64,000 bases of DNA. It comes from Escherichia phage ime. The position numbers were made by a program, and so were the translations under genes. The notes under the pieces are model-generated. The model had not been told where the DNA came from. It ran no database searches and saw only the letters and a list, made by a program, of their open reading frames with translations. The stretch lies in the sequence record MN850576.1. One strand, written 5' to 3'. Of this stretch, positions 22,629 to 58,047 are shown piece after piece; position 1 is the first letter of the stretch, and each line of letters begins with the position of its first letter.

Positions 22629-22651
22629 TGATTATTTTAACAGGGTTTAAA

Positions 22652-22696
22652 TTTACTTTATTGATGGCCCTGGAGTCAAGGCCATCTAAAAATAAA
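22652..22696 (-). promoter_or_regulatory. 45-bp repeat copy 1: candidate promoter with palindromic operator over -35
   Basis: Identical to 26367-26411; contains GATGGCC-N10-GGCCATC with TTGACT on the minus strand. Confidence 0.45.
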
Positions 22697-26004: not shown

Positions 26005-26077
26005 GTACTTTCTCCTTTCATGGTGTTAATAAATTATCTTTATAGATGGCCCTGCAACCAGGACCACCGAAAAATAA

Positions 26078-26323
26078 CTATTTCACAATGCCTACAAAAC
26101 AGATCCCGCCTTCACCTATATAAGCAATATCGGTCACTTTATAACTTGTCAAGATCTGCTTATTTAGTTCATTAATAAAATCGGTCATTGCGTTGGTGTA
26201 GTTGTCTTCCGTGTCTAAGGCATAATCCCAGGTGTACACCTTTTTACGTCCGAAGCCTTTTACCATGATACGGGCGCTTTTGGTGTTGGTAGGGGCATAA
26301 TATTTGGTGATTAGTGCTGCCAT
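26078..26323 (-). CDS. hypothetical protein
   Basis: ORF track. Confidence 0.45.
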   Translation of the reverse strand: MAALITKYYAPTNTKSARIMVKGFGRKKVYTWDYALDTEDNYTNAMTDFINELNKQILTSYKVTDIAYIGEGGICFVGIVK

Positions 26324-26366
26324 GGTTTTAACTCCTATGCATTAGTTCAGTGTTAACAGTATAAAG

Positions 26367-26411
26367 TTTACTTTATTGATGGCCCTGGAGTCAAGGCCAT
26401 CTAAAAATAAA
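26367..26411 (-). promoter_or_regulatory. 45-bp repeat copy 2: candidate promoter with palindromic operator
   Basis: Identical to 22652-22696. Confidence 0.45.
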
Positions 26412-28184: not shown

Positions 28185-28300
28185 AAATTCTAAATGAGAA
28201 CTCCTCGCATTTAATAAATTTAATTAGCATGCTAATTACCCTCCGTAACAATTTCCTATAAAACAGTATCCCATAAAATATTCCCATATAGAAATTTTAA

Positions 28301-28482
28301 AAATCCATTTCTGAAAACGAAAAATCGATTTCGTCCCCAAAAATTTCAGGTCGAGAGCTGGAACGATTTCCAGAAAATCCGATTCAGAAAACGAAAAACA
28401 GATCGAGTACTTGGAAATTTATCGAGAAAAATTTTCAGAAAATTCAATCTTTGAAACGAAAAACAGATCGAGTACTTGGAAA
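28301..28482. repeat. degenerate tandem iterons (~65-75 bp period), AT-rich
   Basis: GAAAACGAAAAACAGATCGAGTACTTGGAAA twice (28385/28451) plus variant at 28311; AAATCCATTT motif recurs to 28760. Confidence 0.5.
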
Positions 28483-53245: not shown

Positions 53246-53626
53246 CTAAAATGCAGTCCGAATCCAGACAAGGTTCTTATCTGCCCAATCATAGAGGCAA
53301 GTCATTGCACTATTGAATTGCTCACACGGAGGATAATCTTCTTCCATCTGGCGCATAGCAGAGCCTTGTGGGTAAAGCTCCCGTGCTGCAAACCACGCGT
53401 CGTAGTCATCAACGGTGTCGAAGTAGTATACAACATCCTCTAACTCAGGATCGAACTTTGAACTATCAGGATCCAGTTGTTCAGGGAACTTGGAGCGTAA
53501 CTTGCCAGCCACAATACTTGCCAACTCGCTAACATGCTTATTGTCCCACTCCACTAGCTTCCCGTCTTCAGTGATGCGTCCTAACCACTGATCATGAAGG
53601 TCAACTGTTGTCTTCCACTGAGCCAT
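53246..53626 (-). CDS. hypothetical protein
   Basis: ORF track. Confidence 0.5.
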   Translation of the reverse strand: MAQWKTTVDLHDQWLGRITEDGKLVEWDNKHVSELASIVAGKLRSKFPEQLDPDSSKFDPELEDVVYYFDTVDDYDAWFAARELYPQGSAMRQMEEDYPPCEQFNSAMTCLYDWADKNLVWIRTAF

Positions 53627-53628
53627 TA

Positions 53629-53889
53629 TCAGTCCACCTCTTCTTCTCGTTGTAGTTCAAGATACCCGTAGGTCTGGACATCTTGAAGGGTGTGGAACTC
53701 CCCCCCCTCTGCCGCTAAGGCACGAACAACTTGGCACAAAACCTTATGAGGAACTTCATCCAAACCTAGATTCAGTGCAGGAAACACCTTATCTAAGTCA
53801 ACAAAATAAACGAACTGTAGCTCACCAGCTTCAAAAGGTGTATCTTCAATAAACATCTTCTCGGCATTAGTCAAGATCTGCACTTTCAT
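53629..53889 (-). CDS. hypothetical protein
   Basis: ORF track. Confidence 0.45.
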   Translation of the reverse strand: MKVQILTNAEKMFIEDTPFEAGELQFVYFVDLDKVFPALNLGLDEVPHKVLCQVVRALAAEGGEFHTLQDVQTYGYLELQREEEVD

Positions 53890-54245
53890 TATTCTACCTC
53901 CTCTTCTTTTTCTTCGGCATTAGTTTCATGGCTACCCCACTCGGGAGTTTCCACCTCGATAGTAAACTCACGCACTACACGGTAATTGCCCATGAAGCGC
54001 TCTACTTCGTCAAGGCTTATGGAGAGGCCATTGGCAACCAGGTCTGCAGCACCCTCTTCTACCAGGTAGTCCAGATTGGCTTCCAGAGCCTCAGGTTCAA
54101 ACCCTGTCAATGCAATCAGATAACCTTCCCCTTCATCAGGGAGGACAATACAGCCCAATTGATTTTCTTTAAAAAGGCAGTGACCATCATTATTGATTGG
54201 GTGTTCATTGCAGTAAATAGCTGCACGATAAGTAACTTTAGACAT
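53889..54245 (-). CDS. hypothetical acidic protein starting MSKVTYRA
   Basis: ATG 54245 with TAAGGAGA RBS; first 8 codons lie in the 29-bp inverted repeat. Confidence 0.5.
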   Translation of the reverse strand: MSKVTYRAAIYCNEHPINNDGHCLFKENQLGCIVLPDEGEGYLIALTGFEPEALEANLDYLVEEGAADLVANGLSISLDEVERFMGNYRVVREFTIEVETPEWGSHETNAEEKEEEVE

Positions 54246-54250
54246 CGGTA
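54222..54250. repeat. 29-bp inverted repeat, copy A
   Basis: Reverse complement identical to 56085-56113 (TACCGATGTCTAAAGTTACTTATCGTGCA). Confidence 0.7.
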
Positions 54251-54258
54251 AGGTCTCC

Positions 54259-54537
54259 TTAGGCAATTGTCGTTTTACATTCTTGAAATTTTAACACAAG
54301 ACGGTGATTGTGTCTAGTGTCTAAAAAGATTTTTTCAACCATCAGGCACACGGTATAACCGTCAATCTTGTTGACAACAAAATCTCCAGGATGAGGGAGG
54401 ATGTCTCCCGGATTGGGGAAACATAGTCCACTCAGAAAGGCATCGTCAGTGGTGGACTTAATAGATTTCCACACACTGTCTGCCTGAACATGTTCACCGA
54501 CGTAATATACATTACCACATGCCTTCATCATAGTCAA
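54259..54537 (-). CDS. hypothetical protein
   Basis: ORF track. Confidence 0.45.
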   Translation of the reverse strand: MTMMKACGNVYYVGEHVQADSVWKSIKSTTDDAFLSGLCFPNPGDILPHPGDFVVNKIDGYTVCLMVEKIFLDTRHNHRLVLKFQECKTTIA

Positions 54538-55433
54538 ACCCTCGCATAAATTAAACTTGTATCAGTATACTTCTTTAATGGGTAAATATCCTGTCCATAG
54601 ATGCAATCATTAAACACCTCATCTACCCAAAGGCTACACTTATATCCCATCATTTCTAAAACACCCATCTCTTCTTCGGTAAACTTATCACCGCTCTTGC
54701 AAGATGTCAATACCTCATTCTGAACTCTTGCTACCTCGAAGCGGTTATTGGCAATATCGCTATTGGCGATCAAATACTCACCTAGAGGGTGTGCGGCATT
54801 AAAGATGCACAGTGGACGGCTGACGTAATAGTCTCCAGGTGTATAAAAATTGTTGAGGTCTTTCACTAGAACATTCTTATCAGTCACTTCATTTATAACA
54901 TCATGCATATCGCACATCTTTATATGTTTGAGGATTCCATCCCCCATCACAAAATAAAAACTTGCTGAGACACTTTCGGCATAGATCTTACTAGATCCGT
55001 TGTAGTTGTATTTTACTCGGATGCTAACGGGGGTTTTTCCTGTCGCGTTAGCCATCATCCAAAGAAATGGCAGCTCATACTTCTCCTCTGAGGAAACAAA
55101 AGGTGAGGTAGCCAGAGATCGAAAACCTCCAGAGAAGTTGAAAGTTACAGAACCGCTCCGGCGGTATGATACCGCGTATTCTACTTTTATATCGACATAC
55201 CCATTGGAATAGGTGTGTCCTTCATTATCTAAATATGTCCACTTATCAGACCCAGATACCAATCTACGCTCAATAACCTTCATCACTATAGGAATTAATG
55301 GGTTGGTACAAACCGCTTTTGAAGTAGCTTTATCATCTAAAGCCTCGTAAATTGCAGAAAGGATGTCCCCAGCTGAAAGATTGGTTGTTATGTCCTGTTT
55401 CCACCGCGTACTAAAACTGTTAAGATTTGCCAT
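54534..55433 (-). CDS. hypothetical protein (299 aa)
   Basis: ORF track; first gene of leftward block. Confidence 0.55.
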   Translation of the reverse strand: MANLNSFSTRWKQDITTNLSAGDILSAIYEALDDKATSKAVCTNPLIPIVMKVIERRLVSGSDKWTYLDNEGHTYSNGYVDIKVEYAVSYRRSGSVTFNFSGGFRSLATSPFVSSEEKYELPFLWMMANATGKTPVSIRVKYNYNGSSKIYAESVSASFYFVMGDGILKHIKMCDMHDVINEVTDKNVLVKDLNNFYTPGDYYVSRPLCIFNAAHPLGEYLIANSDIANNRFEVARVQNEVLTSCKSGDKFTEEEMGVLEMMGYKCSLWVDEVFNDCIYGQDIYPLKKYTDTSLIYARV

Positions 55434-55515
55434 AAGTAAGTGCTCCTATGTTAGTTTTCTTTCGAATGGGTGCACTATATTGTGGAGTTAGAGTAAAGTC
55501 AACACGTTTTTGATG

Positions 55516-55544
55516 TTGACATCTGTTGAGACAATTGATACGAT
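55516..55544 (+). promoter_or_regulatory. sigma70-like promoter (TTGACA-17-TACGAT)
   Basis: Divergent from leftward block. Confidence 0.5.
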
Positions 55545-55575
55545 TTCTTCACTTACAGAGCACGAGAGACGACTC

Positions 55576-56553
55576 ATGAATCTTGAAAAATATTATACAC
55601 CAGAAGAGTTAGAGCGCTTGCTCAAAAAATATAGACGCAAACAGAATAACGCACGGAAACGAGATATAGAGTTCGACCTGTCATGGGAAGAATACCTCCT
55701 ATTTGGTAAAAAACTTTTAGGAGATGGAGTATGCGACTATACCCTTATACCTTTTGACATGCACACAGATGAAAACGGGCTGGGGAATCCTTTCTACCCA
55801 TCTCTGGAGCGGATAGATGATGAAGGTCCTTATGCGGTTGATAACTGTTGTGTGGTGGGATTGAGATGCAACTCTCTAAAGGACTGTCTGGTAGATAAAA
55901 AGACTGCAGTCTTGATTAAAGACGAAACTGATCGAAAAATTGTCCAGCAGATGATGCTCCACCTGAGCGAAGAGCGTATGGAGAAATTGAAAGGTGATTA
56001 TACTTTTGAAGATTTCATCTTGCAATATGGAACGGAAGAGGATAAACTAGCACTCTTTGACGAAGAAGAGGAGGAAGATATGCTACCGATGTCTAAAGTT
56101 ACTTATCGTGCACCCAAGAAGCACATTTCCGACATTGTAAACGAGCCTATCACAGAAGAGATTGAAGAAATGACGCAACAGGTGCATGAAGAGGAAAAAG
56201 AGACTCAGGAGGTCGAAGAGGAGCTTACAGAAGAGGTTCCTGCACTACCTGATGATGTTGAGATTGCCAAAGCTTACACTTTCTATTGTCAAACGTTCTA
56301 CGATGTAGGTATGAAAGTTGATCTGTCGTTCAGCCAATTTAAGAGTTCGTATATTCGCAAATGCTGTGCTTTAACTGGTGAACGTCTTGGAGCTGGACTT
56401 AAACCCCTGTTGGTGACCGACTGGAATAAAGGTTTCACTAAAGGAAACTTTATGGTAGTATCTCCAATTATGGAGAAAGCTATGACAGATCTTATGAAGA
56501 CCACCCGCATGACAATGACCGAGTTGGCAGGTATTTTCAAACACGTTAAATAA
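55576..56553 (+). CDS. hypothetical protein (325 aa) with possible internal start at 56091
   Basis: ATG 55576 downstream of promoter; in-frame internal GAGGAGG RBS plus ATG at 56091 inside 29-bp repeat. Confidence 0.5.
   Translation: MNLEKYYTPEELERLLKKYRRKQNNARKRDIEFDLSWEEYLLFGKKLLGDGVCDYTLIPFDMHTDENGLGNPFYPSLERIDDEGPYAVDNCCVVGLRCNSLKDCLVDKKTAVLIKDETDRKIVQQMMLHLSEERMEKLKGDYTFEDFILQYGTEEDKLALFDEEEEEDMLPMSKVTYRAPKKHISDIVNEPITEEIEEMTQQVHEEEKETQEVEEELTEEVPALPDDVEIAKAYTFYCQTFYDVGMKVDLSFSQFKSSYIRKCCALTGERLGAGLKPLLVTDWNKGFTKGNFMVVSPIMEKAMTDLMKTTRMTMTELAGIFKHVK
56085..56113. repeat. 29-bp inverted repeat, copy B
   Basis: Identical to reverse complement of 54222-54250. Confidence 0.7.
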
Positions 56554-56565
56554 TGACAGGGGCCA

Positions 56566-58047
56566 ATGGCCCCTTCTGGAGTTTTAATGGATAGTAGAAG
56601 TTCAGAAATCATTGCCTCGCAGAAAGATGATGCCCTGAGAATGTTGCAGGCTGCACGTATGTATCTCCTTGAAAAGCTGCCGTTTTATGGCACACTACTG
56701 TCAGGGTTGCAGTTCGTAGAAAACCACACATGGTGCTCCACCATGGCAACCGACCATAAACGCATCTATTACAGTCCTGAGTTCATTATGGGATTGGCTG
56801 ATGAACGCAAGGCTATTCTTAAGGCTTCTCTAACTGACGAGCAGTTTGAGATGGCTGAAGTTTTCTATTCCCCAAAATCTGTGAAAGAGGTGGCCTTCCT
56901 TCTGTCACATGAGGTGGGGCATATTATCTGTGATCACCTAGTCCGTGGTAAAAGCTTTGAGCCGGAACTGTTCAATATTGCTTGTGATCACGTTATCAAC
57001 ACAGGCCTTGTGGTTGACTTTAGCAAACCTCCTTGTGTTTTCTTCCCGAAGGGGAAAAGCACTACGTTCATGAAAGGTAAGCCTTTTGGCTTCTTAGCCA
57101 GCTGCTACTGCGACATGAAGTTTCATGGATGGATTGCTGAGAACGTTTATGCAGTTCTTGATAAGCAAAGAGATCAGAATAACGGTAAAAGTAAGAACGG
57201 TAAAGGTGAGAACTCTCAAAGTGATAAGCGACAAACCGATGATCACATGAGTGGGAACGGTGGCACCAGTGATAATCTTGGAAAGGCTATGAGGTATGAT
57301 CAGCCACAACCTGTAATCAGCCAATCTGATAAAGATCAGGCCATGCAGGACTCTGGTGATATGCTGGAGGCAGCAATGCAAGCGTCCGGAGGCCGTTGCC
57401 CTGAGGCGGTGCGTGAGTTTGTCAAGAACAGAGGTAAGCCTGTAATCAACTATATAGACATCATTAAGCAACGTATGTTGTCTAAAAGAAAGGCCGAACT
57501 GACCTACAGAAAACCTGGTCGCCGATCTGGGTCTTTGACCAGCACAATGCGAAAAGTTGGGGCTATAAACAAGAACCAGCACGTTATTGTTCCTGGTCGT
57601 AATCCGGAAAACACTATAGATATTGTGGTGGCTTTAGACGTTTCTGGCTCGATCTCTCAAAGAACTTTAAAGAAAATGTTCAATGAAATCACCGGATTGT
57701 GCAATCTGTATAAAGAGTTTAAGGTTACAATGTTCTGTTGGTCAACTGAGGTTGGAGAGGTTAAAGTATACACTCGCGGCAACATAGACGAGATGGTCAA
57801 CTATGAGGTCCACTCAACATGGGGCACAACAGCTGCTTGCGTGTTCGAGTATCTGGATGCCAACATACCTAATGCAAAAGATGTCATCGTCCTGACCGAC
57901 CTATACTTTGAGCATAACTTTGAACAAAAGGTTGTTGACAACAAGTGGAAAAAGTACGATACTCTATGGGTCCTCACTGAGGGGTATAATAAAAATTATA
58001 TCCCGAGCTTTGGGAAAACTGTGGAATTAATCGAGTACGCTAAGTAA
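56566..58047 (+). CDS. VWA-domain protein with N-terminal HExxH metallopeptidase-like domain
   Basis: HEVGH; MIDAS-like DVSGS; alternative start ATG 56587. Confidence 0.7.
   Translation: MAPSGVLMDSRSSEIIASQKDDALRMLQAARMYLLEKLPFYGTLLSGLQFVENHTWCSTMATDHKRIYYSPEFIMGLADERKAILKASLTDEQFEMAEVFYSPKSVKEVAFLLSHEVGHIICDHLVRGKSFEPELFNIACDHVINTGLVVDFSKPPCVFFPKGKSTTFMKGKPFGFLASCYCDMKFHGWIAENVYAVLDKQRDQNNGKSKNGKGENSQSDKRQTDDHMSGNGGTSDNLGKAMRYDQPQPVISQSDKDQAMQDSGDMLEAAMQASGGRCPEAVREFVKNRGKPVINYIDIIKQRMLSKRKAELTYRKPGRRSGSLTSTMRKVGAINKNQHVIVPGRNPENTIDIVVALDVSGSISQRTLKKMFNEITGLCNLYKEFKVTMFCWSTEVGEVKVYTRGNIDEMVNYEVHSTWGTTAACVFEYLDANIPNAKDVIVLTDLYFEHNFEQKVVDNKWKKYDTLWVLTEGYNKNYIPSFGKTVELIEYAK

Follow-up and report, generated by a model that had tools for sequence, protein, structure and literature searches.

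A perfect 29-bp inverted repeat in an rV5-like coliphage as the probable footprint of one templated mutation

The locus described here raised the question of how the start of one early phage gene came to be repeated, on the opposite strand, inside the coding sequence of another early gene about 1.8 kb away, and whether such a pair was a device of the phage or a trace of a past mutation. The window, by which the whole analysed stretch of 64 kb is meant, came from an rV5-like coliphage of the genus Vequintavirus and was 99.8% identical to the phages pangalan and Murica.

The repeat arms and the genes that carry them

The repeat was found as TACCGATGTCTAAAGTTACTTATCGTGCA, a 29-nt exact match at 56084-56112 on the plus strand, with its reverse complement at 54222-54250 on the minus strand. 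The same pair was recovered by a repeat search, which placed the arms 1833 nt apart. No further copies with up to three mismatches were present in the 64 kb, and the pair was the sole long perfect repeat in the entire window. None of 100 dinucleotide shuffles gave any match, and by inference about 1e-8 such pairs would be expected in 64 kb. The perfect inverted repeat reported in a preliminary description of the locus was real and far above chance; its coordinates were correct for the left arm, and those of the right arm, given as 56085-56113, were one base off. The features of the locus were as follows:

53889..54245, minus strand: 118-aa gene, homologue of Murica gp008 (PHROG 12908), third gene of the leftward early operon
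54222..54250, minus strand: left arm (donor, ancestral), exact match; it covers the ATG of the 118-aa gene with 5 nt of the 5' leader before it and codons 2-8 (SKVTYRA) after it
54254..54261, minus strand: Shine-Dalgarno sequence TAAGGAGA belonging to the 118-aa gene, with the end of the GGAG core 9 nt upstream of the ATG; a ribosome-binding site is annotated at the same position in Murica
54259..55433, minus strand: two leftward genes in the bracketed segment, of 299 aa (PHROG 12338) and 90 aa (PHROG 12847)
55502-55474, minus strand (TTGACT-17-TATAGT), and 55516-55544, plus strand (TTGACA-17-TACGAT): divergent sigma70-type early promoters inside the bracketed segment (PMC3606486)
55576..56553, plus strand: 325-aa early gene, homologue of rV5 gp11: N-terminal domain resembling Srd and endonuclease VII, then a variable acidic linker (roughly aa 160-225), then a C-terminal domain that is conserved
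56068..56082, plus strand: GAGGAGG (56068-56074, Glu codons) followed by the in-frame ATG 56080 (M169), Shine-Dalgarno-like and older than the patch
56084..56112, plus strand: right arm (recipient, derived), a probable templated patch at codons L170-A179 (..LPMSKVTYRA..) of the Srd-like gene, in the linker that separates its two domains

It was confirmed by translation that each copy held an ATG followed by the codons for SKVTYRA. The left ATG (54245..54243) began the leftward gene 53889..54245 and was annotated so in Murica, Gotham and other genomes, and the right copy was in frame within the rightward 325-aa ORF, where it occupied codons 172-179. Both sigma70-like promoters were situated between the arms, in agreement with the earlier statement that the bracketed 1.8 kb held the divergent promoters. 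The 299-aa protein encoded in this segment has been annotated by others as a 'putative alpha 1-3 fucosyltransferase'.

The rV5 gp11 protein was described as a probable Srd homologue and proposed to be the product of an early gene behind a sigma70 promoter (PMC3606486). The 325-aa protein of the window matched PHROG 3118, 4592, 1400 and 1035, and the PHROG annotations of its N-terminal domain were Srd anti-sigma factor, sigma70 decoy and endonuclease VII. By these annotations the domain was similar to T4 Srd ('similarity with rpoD', a decoy of host sigma70) and to endonuclease-VII-like phage proteins, and the 325-aa gene was an early one preceded by a sigma70 promoter, in line with the proposal for rV5 gp11 (PMC3606486). 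Unlike T4 Srd, gp11 possessed a long acidic linker and an additional C-terminal domain that is conserved, and its Srd-like role is a predicted one. Pfam returned no match for this protein or for those of 118, 90 and 299 aa. No paralogy was detectable between the two domains of the 325-aa protein (E=1.2), and the 118-aa protein showed no similarity to its C-terminal half outside the 8 common residues. The alignments of homologues revealed conserved domains on either side of a linker with indels, which varied in both sequence and length. An AF2 model built from an alignment of 8 sequences was poor (overall pLDDT 48.8), and within it the pLDDT was lowest in the linker, which is consistent with a linker that may be disordered.

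Two origins had been offered earlier for the copy within the 325-aa ORF, namely an internal start and a module fusion. The fusion was contradicted by the homologues, since every full-length one down to 55% identity was a single two-domain ORF, and the repeat was located in the variable linker and not at a gene boundary; the short homologue matches were frameshifted or truncated copies. The two-domain gene was ancestral, hence no module fusion had taken place. An internal start brought in by the repeat was not supported either, as both linker ATGs (M169 and M172) and the upstream GGAGG of the Glu codons already existed in Vequintavirus genomes without the repeat. The combination of GGAGG/GAGGA with an ATG was also seen in ancestral-type genomes, and M169 was kept in homologues at 62-68% identity and lost in P0019 and P0020, two more distant ones. 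As for the Shine-Dalgarno sequences claimed upstream of each copy, that of the left copy was in place, with the end of its GGAG core 9 nt before the ATG. The GAGGAGG of the right copy was present but lay 14 nt from the repeat's ATG 56089 and 5 nt from the in-frame ATG 56080; judged by these distances, it appears to be spaced for ATG 56080 and not for the ATG of the repeat. No transcriptomic, Ribo-seq or N-terminomics data for rV5-like phages were found in the literature.

Distribution, polarity and drift of the arms

The gp008 start, which forms the left arm, was present in 20 of the 20 fetched Vequintavirus loci, with lineage-specific point variants. It was rejected as a conserved regulatory element, as FV3 carried three synonymous changes there. 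The right arm was found in 27 GenBank records, which corresponded to 25 phages, all of the Murica type, among about 115 sampled relatives. About 90 other GenBank relatives carried the ancestral linker MQDFKNFMADRAAN, which was 12 nt longer. The ancestral state was read from 12 fetched examples, taken from a set of 119 matching records, as ..GAT ATG TCA CC(A/G) ATG CAG GAy TTT AAA AAy TTy ATG GCT rAT CGT G(C/G)A GCC AAC.., and outgroups at 62-68% protein identity (L005-L008, P0015 and P0016) aligned with it (AQELREFMEKRAE). The linker of the more distant P0019 and P0020 (55-58%) was unrelated in sequence. Six relatives were retrieved from IMG/VR and the right arm was in none of them. An exact-pattern scan of metagenomes yielded one contig, with both arms at the parental spacing and strands, and the same kind of scan of genome collections yielded none.

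The derived sequence agreed at 29 of 29 positions with the reverse complement of the left arm in that genome. Based on the comparison of these genomes, the left arm was shown to be ancestral and the right arm derived; the opposite polarity, with the right arm as the donor, was contradicted by the outgroups. The sampled genomes included neither an intermediate nor a close ancestral-type sister.

Further, the two arms differed from each other in 5 of the 25 carrier phages. The longest common run between them was 27 bp in nomine, A51.2 and PMBT16, 24 bp in ECP32 and 13 bp in Alma. The right copy itself was identical in 26 of the 27 carrier records, and one database protein had a K->E change within it. 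Concerted evolution of the arms was contradicted by the discordant pairs, and the alignments of the carriers showed the arms to be drifting independently, their identity apparently not being maintained. The same G>T was observed in the right arm of ECP32 and in the left arm of Alma, which could hint at occasional exchange between arms. In ECP32, the patch was carried on a central segment of about 340 nt within a divergent gp11 gene, and from this mosaic it was concluded that the patch spreads by recombination.

A templated origin for the right arm

It was proposed that a single templated mutation, in the common ancestor from which the Murica-like Vequintavirus subgroup descends, left the inverted repeat behind, and this explanation was regarded as highly probable. 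The ancestral gp11 linker contained two short inverted matches to the gp008 start, ACC(G/A)ATG (7 nt) and ATCGTG(C)AGC (6-10 nt), a chance resemblance to a site 1.8 kb away on the opposite strand. A 3' DNA end within gp11's linker, arising in replication or from resection at a break, would have paired with the gp008 site via the first match, about 15-22 nt would have been copied there (TCTAAAGTTACTT..), and the end would have returned via the second match. The frame-preserving exchange seen between the genomes, of the 27 nt between the matches for 15 nt of the gp008 start with the loss of four codons, would thereby be accounted for. Vertical inheritance, together with homologous recombination between relatives during co-infection, would then have spread the patch. 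It may have been tolerated because the site was a putatively disordered, indel-tolerant acidic linker.

The sequences required for this course were present in ancestral-type genomes, for example in O157 typing phage 5, where ACCGATG and ATCGTGCAGC occurred at both sites. Within 3 kb, inverted matches of the bipartite 7+6 nt kind abounded, with 3943 counted in the window and about 3150 in shuffles, therefore the substrate needed nothing special. The right arm matched the gp008-start allele of the window's own lineage at 29 of 29 positions, and the alleles of FV3, ECP26 and slur16 at 27-28 of 29. The change was confined to a single block, in which 27 nt were replaced with 15 nt of donor sequence, and 2-3 flanking substitutions went beyond what the donor could account for. 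These bases beside the tract (T>C at 56083, G>C at 56113 and C>G at 56118) were unlike the donor and every sampled ancestral allele, which counts against the proposed explanation. Divergence from every sampled ancestral allele reached 13-18% over the 100 nt downstream of the patch and only 3-11%, mostly 4-7%, upstream of it; the downstream flanking differences were explicable by this local divergence.

Mutations by template switching between imperfect inverted repeats form a well-established class, and perfect inverted copies are their product (PMC7202029, PMC7954356, PMC8604942). The class comprises the quasipalindrome and short-range template-switch events of the Ripley model, the E. coli reporters of the Lovett laboratory and the four-point model of Loytynoja and Goldman (PMC7202029, PMC7954356, PMC8604942), in which, as proposed here, one multi-nucleotide event makes an imperfect inverted repeat perfect. 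The donor likewise stays unchanged, microhomology is found at both switch points, a cluster of substitutions is accompanied by an indel, and an in-frame coding change is possible. However, the templates of the classical events lie tens to about 100 nt away (not more than 100 nt was required in PMC7954356), and the strict definition of a quasipalindrome asks for a template within about 100 nt and hairpin-capable arms, whereas the present arms, at 1833 nt from each other, could form no simple hairpin between the sites. The event would therefore have been either a long-range variant of the class or one of repair synthesis or ectopic conversion. It also differed from the class in that it affected a lytic phage genome and put the start codon region of another gene into a protein linker, and its mechanism is inferred from comparative data alone.

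Ectopic short-patch gene conversion and microhomology-mediated templated repair (SDSA- or MMBIR-like) similarly leave a short non-reciprocal tract that is bounded by microhomology, with the donor unchanged, and they fit kilobase distances and the recombination-dependent replication typical of large lytic phages. In contrast to canonical homologous gene conversion, the prior homology amounted here to only 7 + 6-10 nt, which is far too short, and the break is hypothetical. The enzymology may have been either a replicative template switch or microhomology-primed repair synthesis or a short gene-conversion patch. On the assumption of neutrality, the repeat was most likely a recent and neutral mutational scar.

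Competing explanations and meaning of the repeat

It had also been claimed that homologous inversion would swap the upstream context of the two MSKVTYRA-initiated bodies. The geometry of this claim was upheld: the arms shared the codon phase, so inversion products would be in frame, and the promoter context would be swapped. The switch itself was not supported, as the recombinant junction was absent from the records and no serine invertase homologue was matched in the window. An invertible segment, in which the arms would recombine in a homologous or site-specific manner and flip the 1.8-kb promoter-bearing segment, was judged very unlikely, even though the arms formed a perfect inverted pair of 29 bp in one codon phase, leaving both recombinant ORFs in frame, and the divergent promoters were positioned between them. 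Its products would be a gp11-N::gp008 fusion and a free gp11 C-domain, and the early promoters would be swapped between the MoxR-ATPase and the VWA/metallopeptidase arms. A length of 29 bp is about the minimum for exchange mediated by RecA or a phage recombinase. None of 117 matching phage records had the recombinant junction as one contiguous stretch, the best coverage (59%) being that of one parental context. The 23 derived-type records among the matches listed each aligned collinearly as one piece, ECP32 was annotated in the parental order, and the lone metagenome contig had the parental spacing and strands. The inverted orientation was in no deposited genome, and all fetched loci, which were consensus assemblies, were parental. 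No protein of the length of the fusion occurred among 21 clusters from a database of 5.8 billion proteins. Moreover, the right arm was missing from most of the genus, the arms differed in one fifth of the carriers, and the 29-mer, as read from its sequence, had no dyad-symmetric half-sites. A tblastn search of the 64-kb window with the serine invertases Gin and Hin as queries gave nothing better than E=1.5, and neither Pfam nor PHROG assigned a recombinase domain to the genes within or beside the segment. Known invertible coding segments (the Mu G segment with Gin, the P1 C segment with Cin, Salmonella Hin and the R64 shufflon) likewise have inverted repeats inside coding sequence in the same phase and link a fixed N-terminal part to one or another C-terminal body, as inversion would do here. 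Unlike in those systems, no invertase gene, enhancer or dyad-symmetric crossover site was found, the repeat was not conserved in the genus, and a single orientation was seen in all deposited genomes. A rare but biologically used homologous inversion in Murica-type populations, that is, a recent recombinase-independent 'proto-shufflon', was considered very unlikely as well.

It is also improbable that the patch was retained as a second gp008 translation-initiation region in the gp11 mRNA, where either a C-terminal product would be initiated efficiently from it or one trans-acting factor (a translational repressor or an sRNA) would control both mRNAs through it. The same sense sequence surrounds the ATG in both mRNAs, GAGGAGG lies upstream of the right copy, and this copy is unchanged in nearly all carrier records. 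The derived state also turned TATGTC into TATGCT, which gave a weak TTGACG-16-TATGCT promoter-like match at 56057-56084. However, the carriers, leaving aside the mosaic ECP32, shared no less than about 97.7% identity across the 3-kb region, therefore the conservation of the right copy was uninformative. The Shine-Dalgarno-like sequence and both ATGs were older than the patch, the 14-nt spacing to ATG 56089 was poor, and gp008's own Shine-Dalgarno sequence remained outside the copied part. Most of the genus lacked the right copy, the arms diverged freely, and promoter-like matches numbered 8 versus 6.2 expected by chance. Quite unlikely, too, is the import of a Murica-type linker from an unsampled relative by recombination, with the identity to the gp008 start having arisen in that donor lineage. 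The linker of the derived clade was indeed a distinct allele, given the divergence of 13-18% downstream of the patch, and ECP32 demonstrated that such central segments move by recombination. This explanation merely transfers the same templated event to a close relative, and is a variant of the preferred one; the 29/29 identity to the gp008 allele of the same lineage means that the donor was a near relative with the same gene pair. Chance resemblance or an assembly artefact had a negligible probability and was refuted by the shuffles (0/100, with about 1e-8 pairs expected in 64 kb) together with the independent sequencing of 25 phages and one metagenome contig that carried the repeat.

With the templated mutation as the preferred explanation, the 325-aa Srd-like gene is to be annotated as one ancestral two-domain ORF in which the repeat marks no module boundary. 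The repeat can be used as a lineage marker for Murica-type vequintaviruses, and such patches can reach other genomes by recombination, as in ECP32. If the proto-shufflon were true, a minority isomer would carry the gp11-N::gp008 fusion and the free gp11 C-domain, with the early promoters exchanged. The locus provides a clean natural example in which the ancestral and derived states were both sampled and in which a probable microhomology-primed templated mutation moved eight codons and a start-codon region from one gene into the linker of another, 1.8 kb away on the opposite strand. A perfect inverted repeat that gives 'identical gene starts', however striking, can be a mutational scar and not a regulatory device.

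The inverted repeat and its locus

The perfect 29-bp inverted repeat was confirmed by an exact match of both copies: the 29-mer TACCGATGTCTAAAGTTACTTATCGTGCA was found at 56084-56112 (+) and its reverse complement at 54222-54250 (-). The preliminary description had located the left arm correctly and placed the right arm one base too high. No match was obtained in 100 shuffled sequences, no further copies with up to 3 mismatches were present in the 64 kb, and the pair was the sole long perfect repeat of the window. The repeat is real and non-random.

Features of the locus (window coordinates, strand)
54245..54243 (-): ATG of the 118-aa gene gp008, followed in the left copy by codons 2-8
54254-54261 (-): TAAGGAGA, upstream of the gp008 ATG
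55502-55474 (-): predicted sigma70-type promoter TTGACT-17-TATAGT, between gp010 and gp011, divergent from the next
55516-55544 (+): predicted sigma70-type promoter TTGACA-17-TACGAT, between gp010 and gp011
56068-56074 (+): GAGGAGG, built of Glu codons
56084-56112 (+): right copy, in frame within the 325-aa ORF (..EEEEEDMLPMSKVTYRAPKKH..)

The region 53600-56600 shared 99.8% identity with Escherichia phages pangalan and Murica; phage records matching it numbered 119, almost all from rV5-like Vequintavirus. In Murica numbering, the leftward operon comprises gp010 (299 aa), gp009 (90 aa), gp008 (118 aa), gp007, gp006, gp005 and gp004, a MoxR-type ATPase; the rightward operon comprises gp011 (325 aa, here gp11) and then gp012, a DUF2201 metallopeptidase/VWA protein. 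At 54288-54316 (-), the 3'-terminal part of the 90-aa gene holds a promoter-like motif, TAGACA-17-TAAAAT with extended -10 TG, about 40 nt ahead of the gp008 start codon; by its sequence this motif could provide gp008 with its own transcript.

The gp11 protein was matched over its full length by phrog_3118, and its N-terminal part by phrog_4592 'decoy of host sigma70', phrog_1400 'Srd anti-sigma factor' and phrog_1035 'endonuclease VII', in line with PMC3606486, where rV5 gp11 is described as a probable Srd homologue. The labels of its gene (55576-56553) differed by record ('anti-sigma factor', 'HNH endonuclease', 'anti-termination protein', 'type II restriction endonuclease'), and some records also labelled the DUF2201/VWA protein (56587-58047) 'HNH endonuclease' or 'anti-sigma factor'. 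The gp11 start was annotated inconsistently, giving 325 or 346 aa; the longer version begins shortly before the predicted promoter 55516-55544 and its first codons run through that promoter, which favours the 325-aa start. In phage Alma (vB_Eco_Alma, OV101294.1) the gp11 ORF was broken after 93 nt, the locus lacked 1 nt compared with relatives and the sole gp11 annotation was a 264-aa 3' ORF; the interruption reflects a frameshift or else a sequencing error.

Other repetition was also observed in the window. An AT-rich, apparently non-coding stretch at 28287-28482 held a 57-nt unit in three degenerate copies, spaced 74 and 65 nt and 61-82% identical (best-conserved core ..GAAAACGAAAAA(C/T)(A/C)GAT..). 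This stretch may be the box drawn as 'non-coding' in the paper on the rV5 genome, or may serve as an origin or in regulation. Recurring intergenic-looking elements of 27-48 nt (22649-22696, 26031-26078 and 26364-26411; 32287/43275; 17862/62549) each held a GC-rich stem-loop, e.g., GATGGCCCTGGAGTCAAGGCCATC, and by sequence look like shared terminator cassettes.

Polarity of the arms and origin of the right arm

Both sites were read in 20 related Vequintavirus loci (GenBank and IMG/VR) and 4 more distant IMG/VR loci. The gp008 start, i.e., the left arm, was found in every Vequintavirus fetched, with ordinary lineage-specific point variants (e.g., FV3 ATGTCCAAAGTCACT.., ECP26 TATCAATG, slur16 AAAGCTACT, nomine TTGCCGATG). 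The right arm, scored as an end-to-end match of at least 97.5% identity to a 121-nt query across it, was restricted to the Murica-type subgroup (27 records, 25 phages). All other relatives had a linker 12 nt longer, GATATGTCACC(A/G)ATGCAGGAyTTTAAAAAyTTyATGGCTrATCGTG(C/G)AGCCAACAAr, encoding DMSPMQDFKNFMA(D/N)R(A/G)ANKH. Outgroups at 62-68% protein identity carried (Y/P)MTPAQELREF(M/I)(E/D)KR(A/T)EKH, alignable with the long version; hence the long linker is ancestral and the repeat-bearing one derived. The right arm matched the gp008 start of its own lineage at 29/29 positions and those of other lineages at 27-28/29, which identifies the left arm as the donor and a close relative or the same genome as its source.

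The 3-kb region was matched by 16 Campylobacter-named GenBank records (MG0656xx, e.g., the UNVERIFIED A140), which are rV5-like coliphage genomes; C12, C2 and A140-type, the three listed individually, showed about 92-99.5% identity, and the host attribution of the 16 records is probably wrong.

In ancestral-type genomes the gp008 start and the gp11 linker already had two short inverted matches in common, as seen in O157 typing phage 5:

gp008, sense strand: ..CTT ACCGATG TCTAAAGTTACTT ATCGTGCAGC TATT..
gp11 linker: ..GTC ACCGATG CAGGATTTTAAAAATTTCATGGCTG ATCGTGCAGC CAAC..

The derived linker retained both matches with gp008 sequence in between, a single block of 25-27 nt having given way to 13-15 nt (net -12 nt, frame intact). 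Such a replacement flanked by two short matches is the pattern expected of a double template switch, or of microhomology-primed copying off an ectopic template, either of which would have produced the right arm. Imperfect inverted repeats are known to become perfect by templated copying (PMC7202029, PMC7954356, PMC8604942), although the 1.8 kb between the arms is unusual for this class. Bipartite inverted 7+6 nt matches within 3 kb numbered 3943 in the window versus about 3150 in shuffles; being ubiquitous, they make the substrate nothing special. Judged from sequence, a replicative switch, break-repair synthesis and a very short conversion patch are all candidate routes. The donor does not account for three flanking substitutions (T>C 56083, G>C 56113, C>G 56118); these may be ordinary later changes, since divergence from every sampled ancestral allele was 13-18% in the 100 nt downstream and 3-11% upstream. 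We consider it highly probable that a single recent templated patch copied the gp008 start into the gp11 linker in an ancestor of the Murica-type phages.

Inversion, module fusion and internal initiation

Homologous inversion between the arms had been predicted to swap the upstream context of the two gene bodies; a role of the repeat as a switch was not supported. Of the 117 records matched by a chimeric query for the inverted junction, none had it contiguous, and coverage reached 59% at most, representing one parental context. The 23 derived-type records listed (the carrier inoa was not listed individually) aligned with the 3-kb query as a single collinear piece, parental contexts were found in 11/11 fetched carrier loci, the ECP32 annotation had the parental gene order, and a lone metagenome contig carried both arms at parental spacing and strands. 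No fusion-length protein was found in the protein search, and no Gin/Hin-like invertase within the 64-kb window when Gin and Hin served as queries. A rare homologous inversion in phage populations would be compatible with consensus genomes. A module fusion was not supported by the homologues, since each full-length one, down to 55% identity, was a single ORF with both domains, and shorter database matches were frameshifted or truncated copies. No paralogy was detectable between the N- and C-terminal domains of gp11, and gp008 shared nothing with gp11 beyond the 8 residues.

For an internal start, the Shine-Dalgarno-like sequence and in-frame ATGs are indeed present, but they were not created by the repeat: both linker ATGs and the upstream GGAGG/GAGGA occur in genomes without the patch and therefore predate it. 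GAGGAGG lies 14 nt from the repeat ATG (56089) and 5 nt from the other in-frame ATG (56080), which by its position would be the better candidate if any internal initiation takes place. M169, the residue encoded at ATG 56080, was kept in homologues of 62-68% identity and absent from those of 55-58%. In the derived linker TATGTC became TATGCT, giving a weak sigma70-like TTGACG-16-TATGCT at 56057-56084 (+), with 4 nt between its end and the right-copy ATG; promoter matches at this consensus level numbered 8 in the region versus 6.2 expected.

Probable tolerance and later fate of the patch

The patch lies in an acidic stretch between the two conserved gp11 domains; homologues differ there in sequence and by several indels. 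An AlphaFold model, poor elsewhere too, gave this stretch its lowest confidence and predicted hardly any secondary structure in it. The 4-codon change was likely tolerated there. The arms differed in 5 of the 25 carriers: nomine, A51.2 and PMBT16 (longest common run 27 bp), ECP32 (24 bp) and Alma (13 bp). One database protein had MSEVTYRA in the right copy; these differences argue against both concerted evolution and selection for a perfect repeat. ECP32 in its right arm (window equivalent 56089-1) and Alma in its left arm (54246) had an identical G>T (TACCGATG -> TACCTATG) that neither partner arm shared; it could reflect parallel mutation, or past inter-arm exchange followed by reassortment. 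In ECP32 the patch sat on a central segment of about 340 nt in an otherwise divergent gp11, so it has spread by ordinary homologous recombination among vequintaviruses.

The repeat is best explained as a neutral scar and lineage marker rather than as a switch, the junction of a fusion or a second, dedicated initiation region. The patch represents a well-polarised, unusually long-range new example of an already known mutation type.
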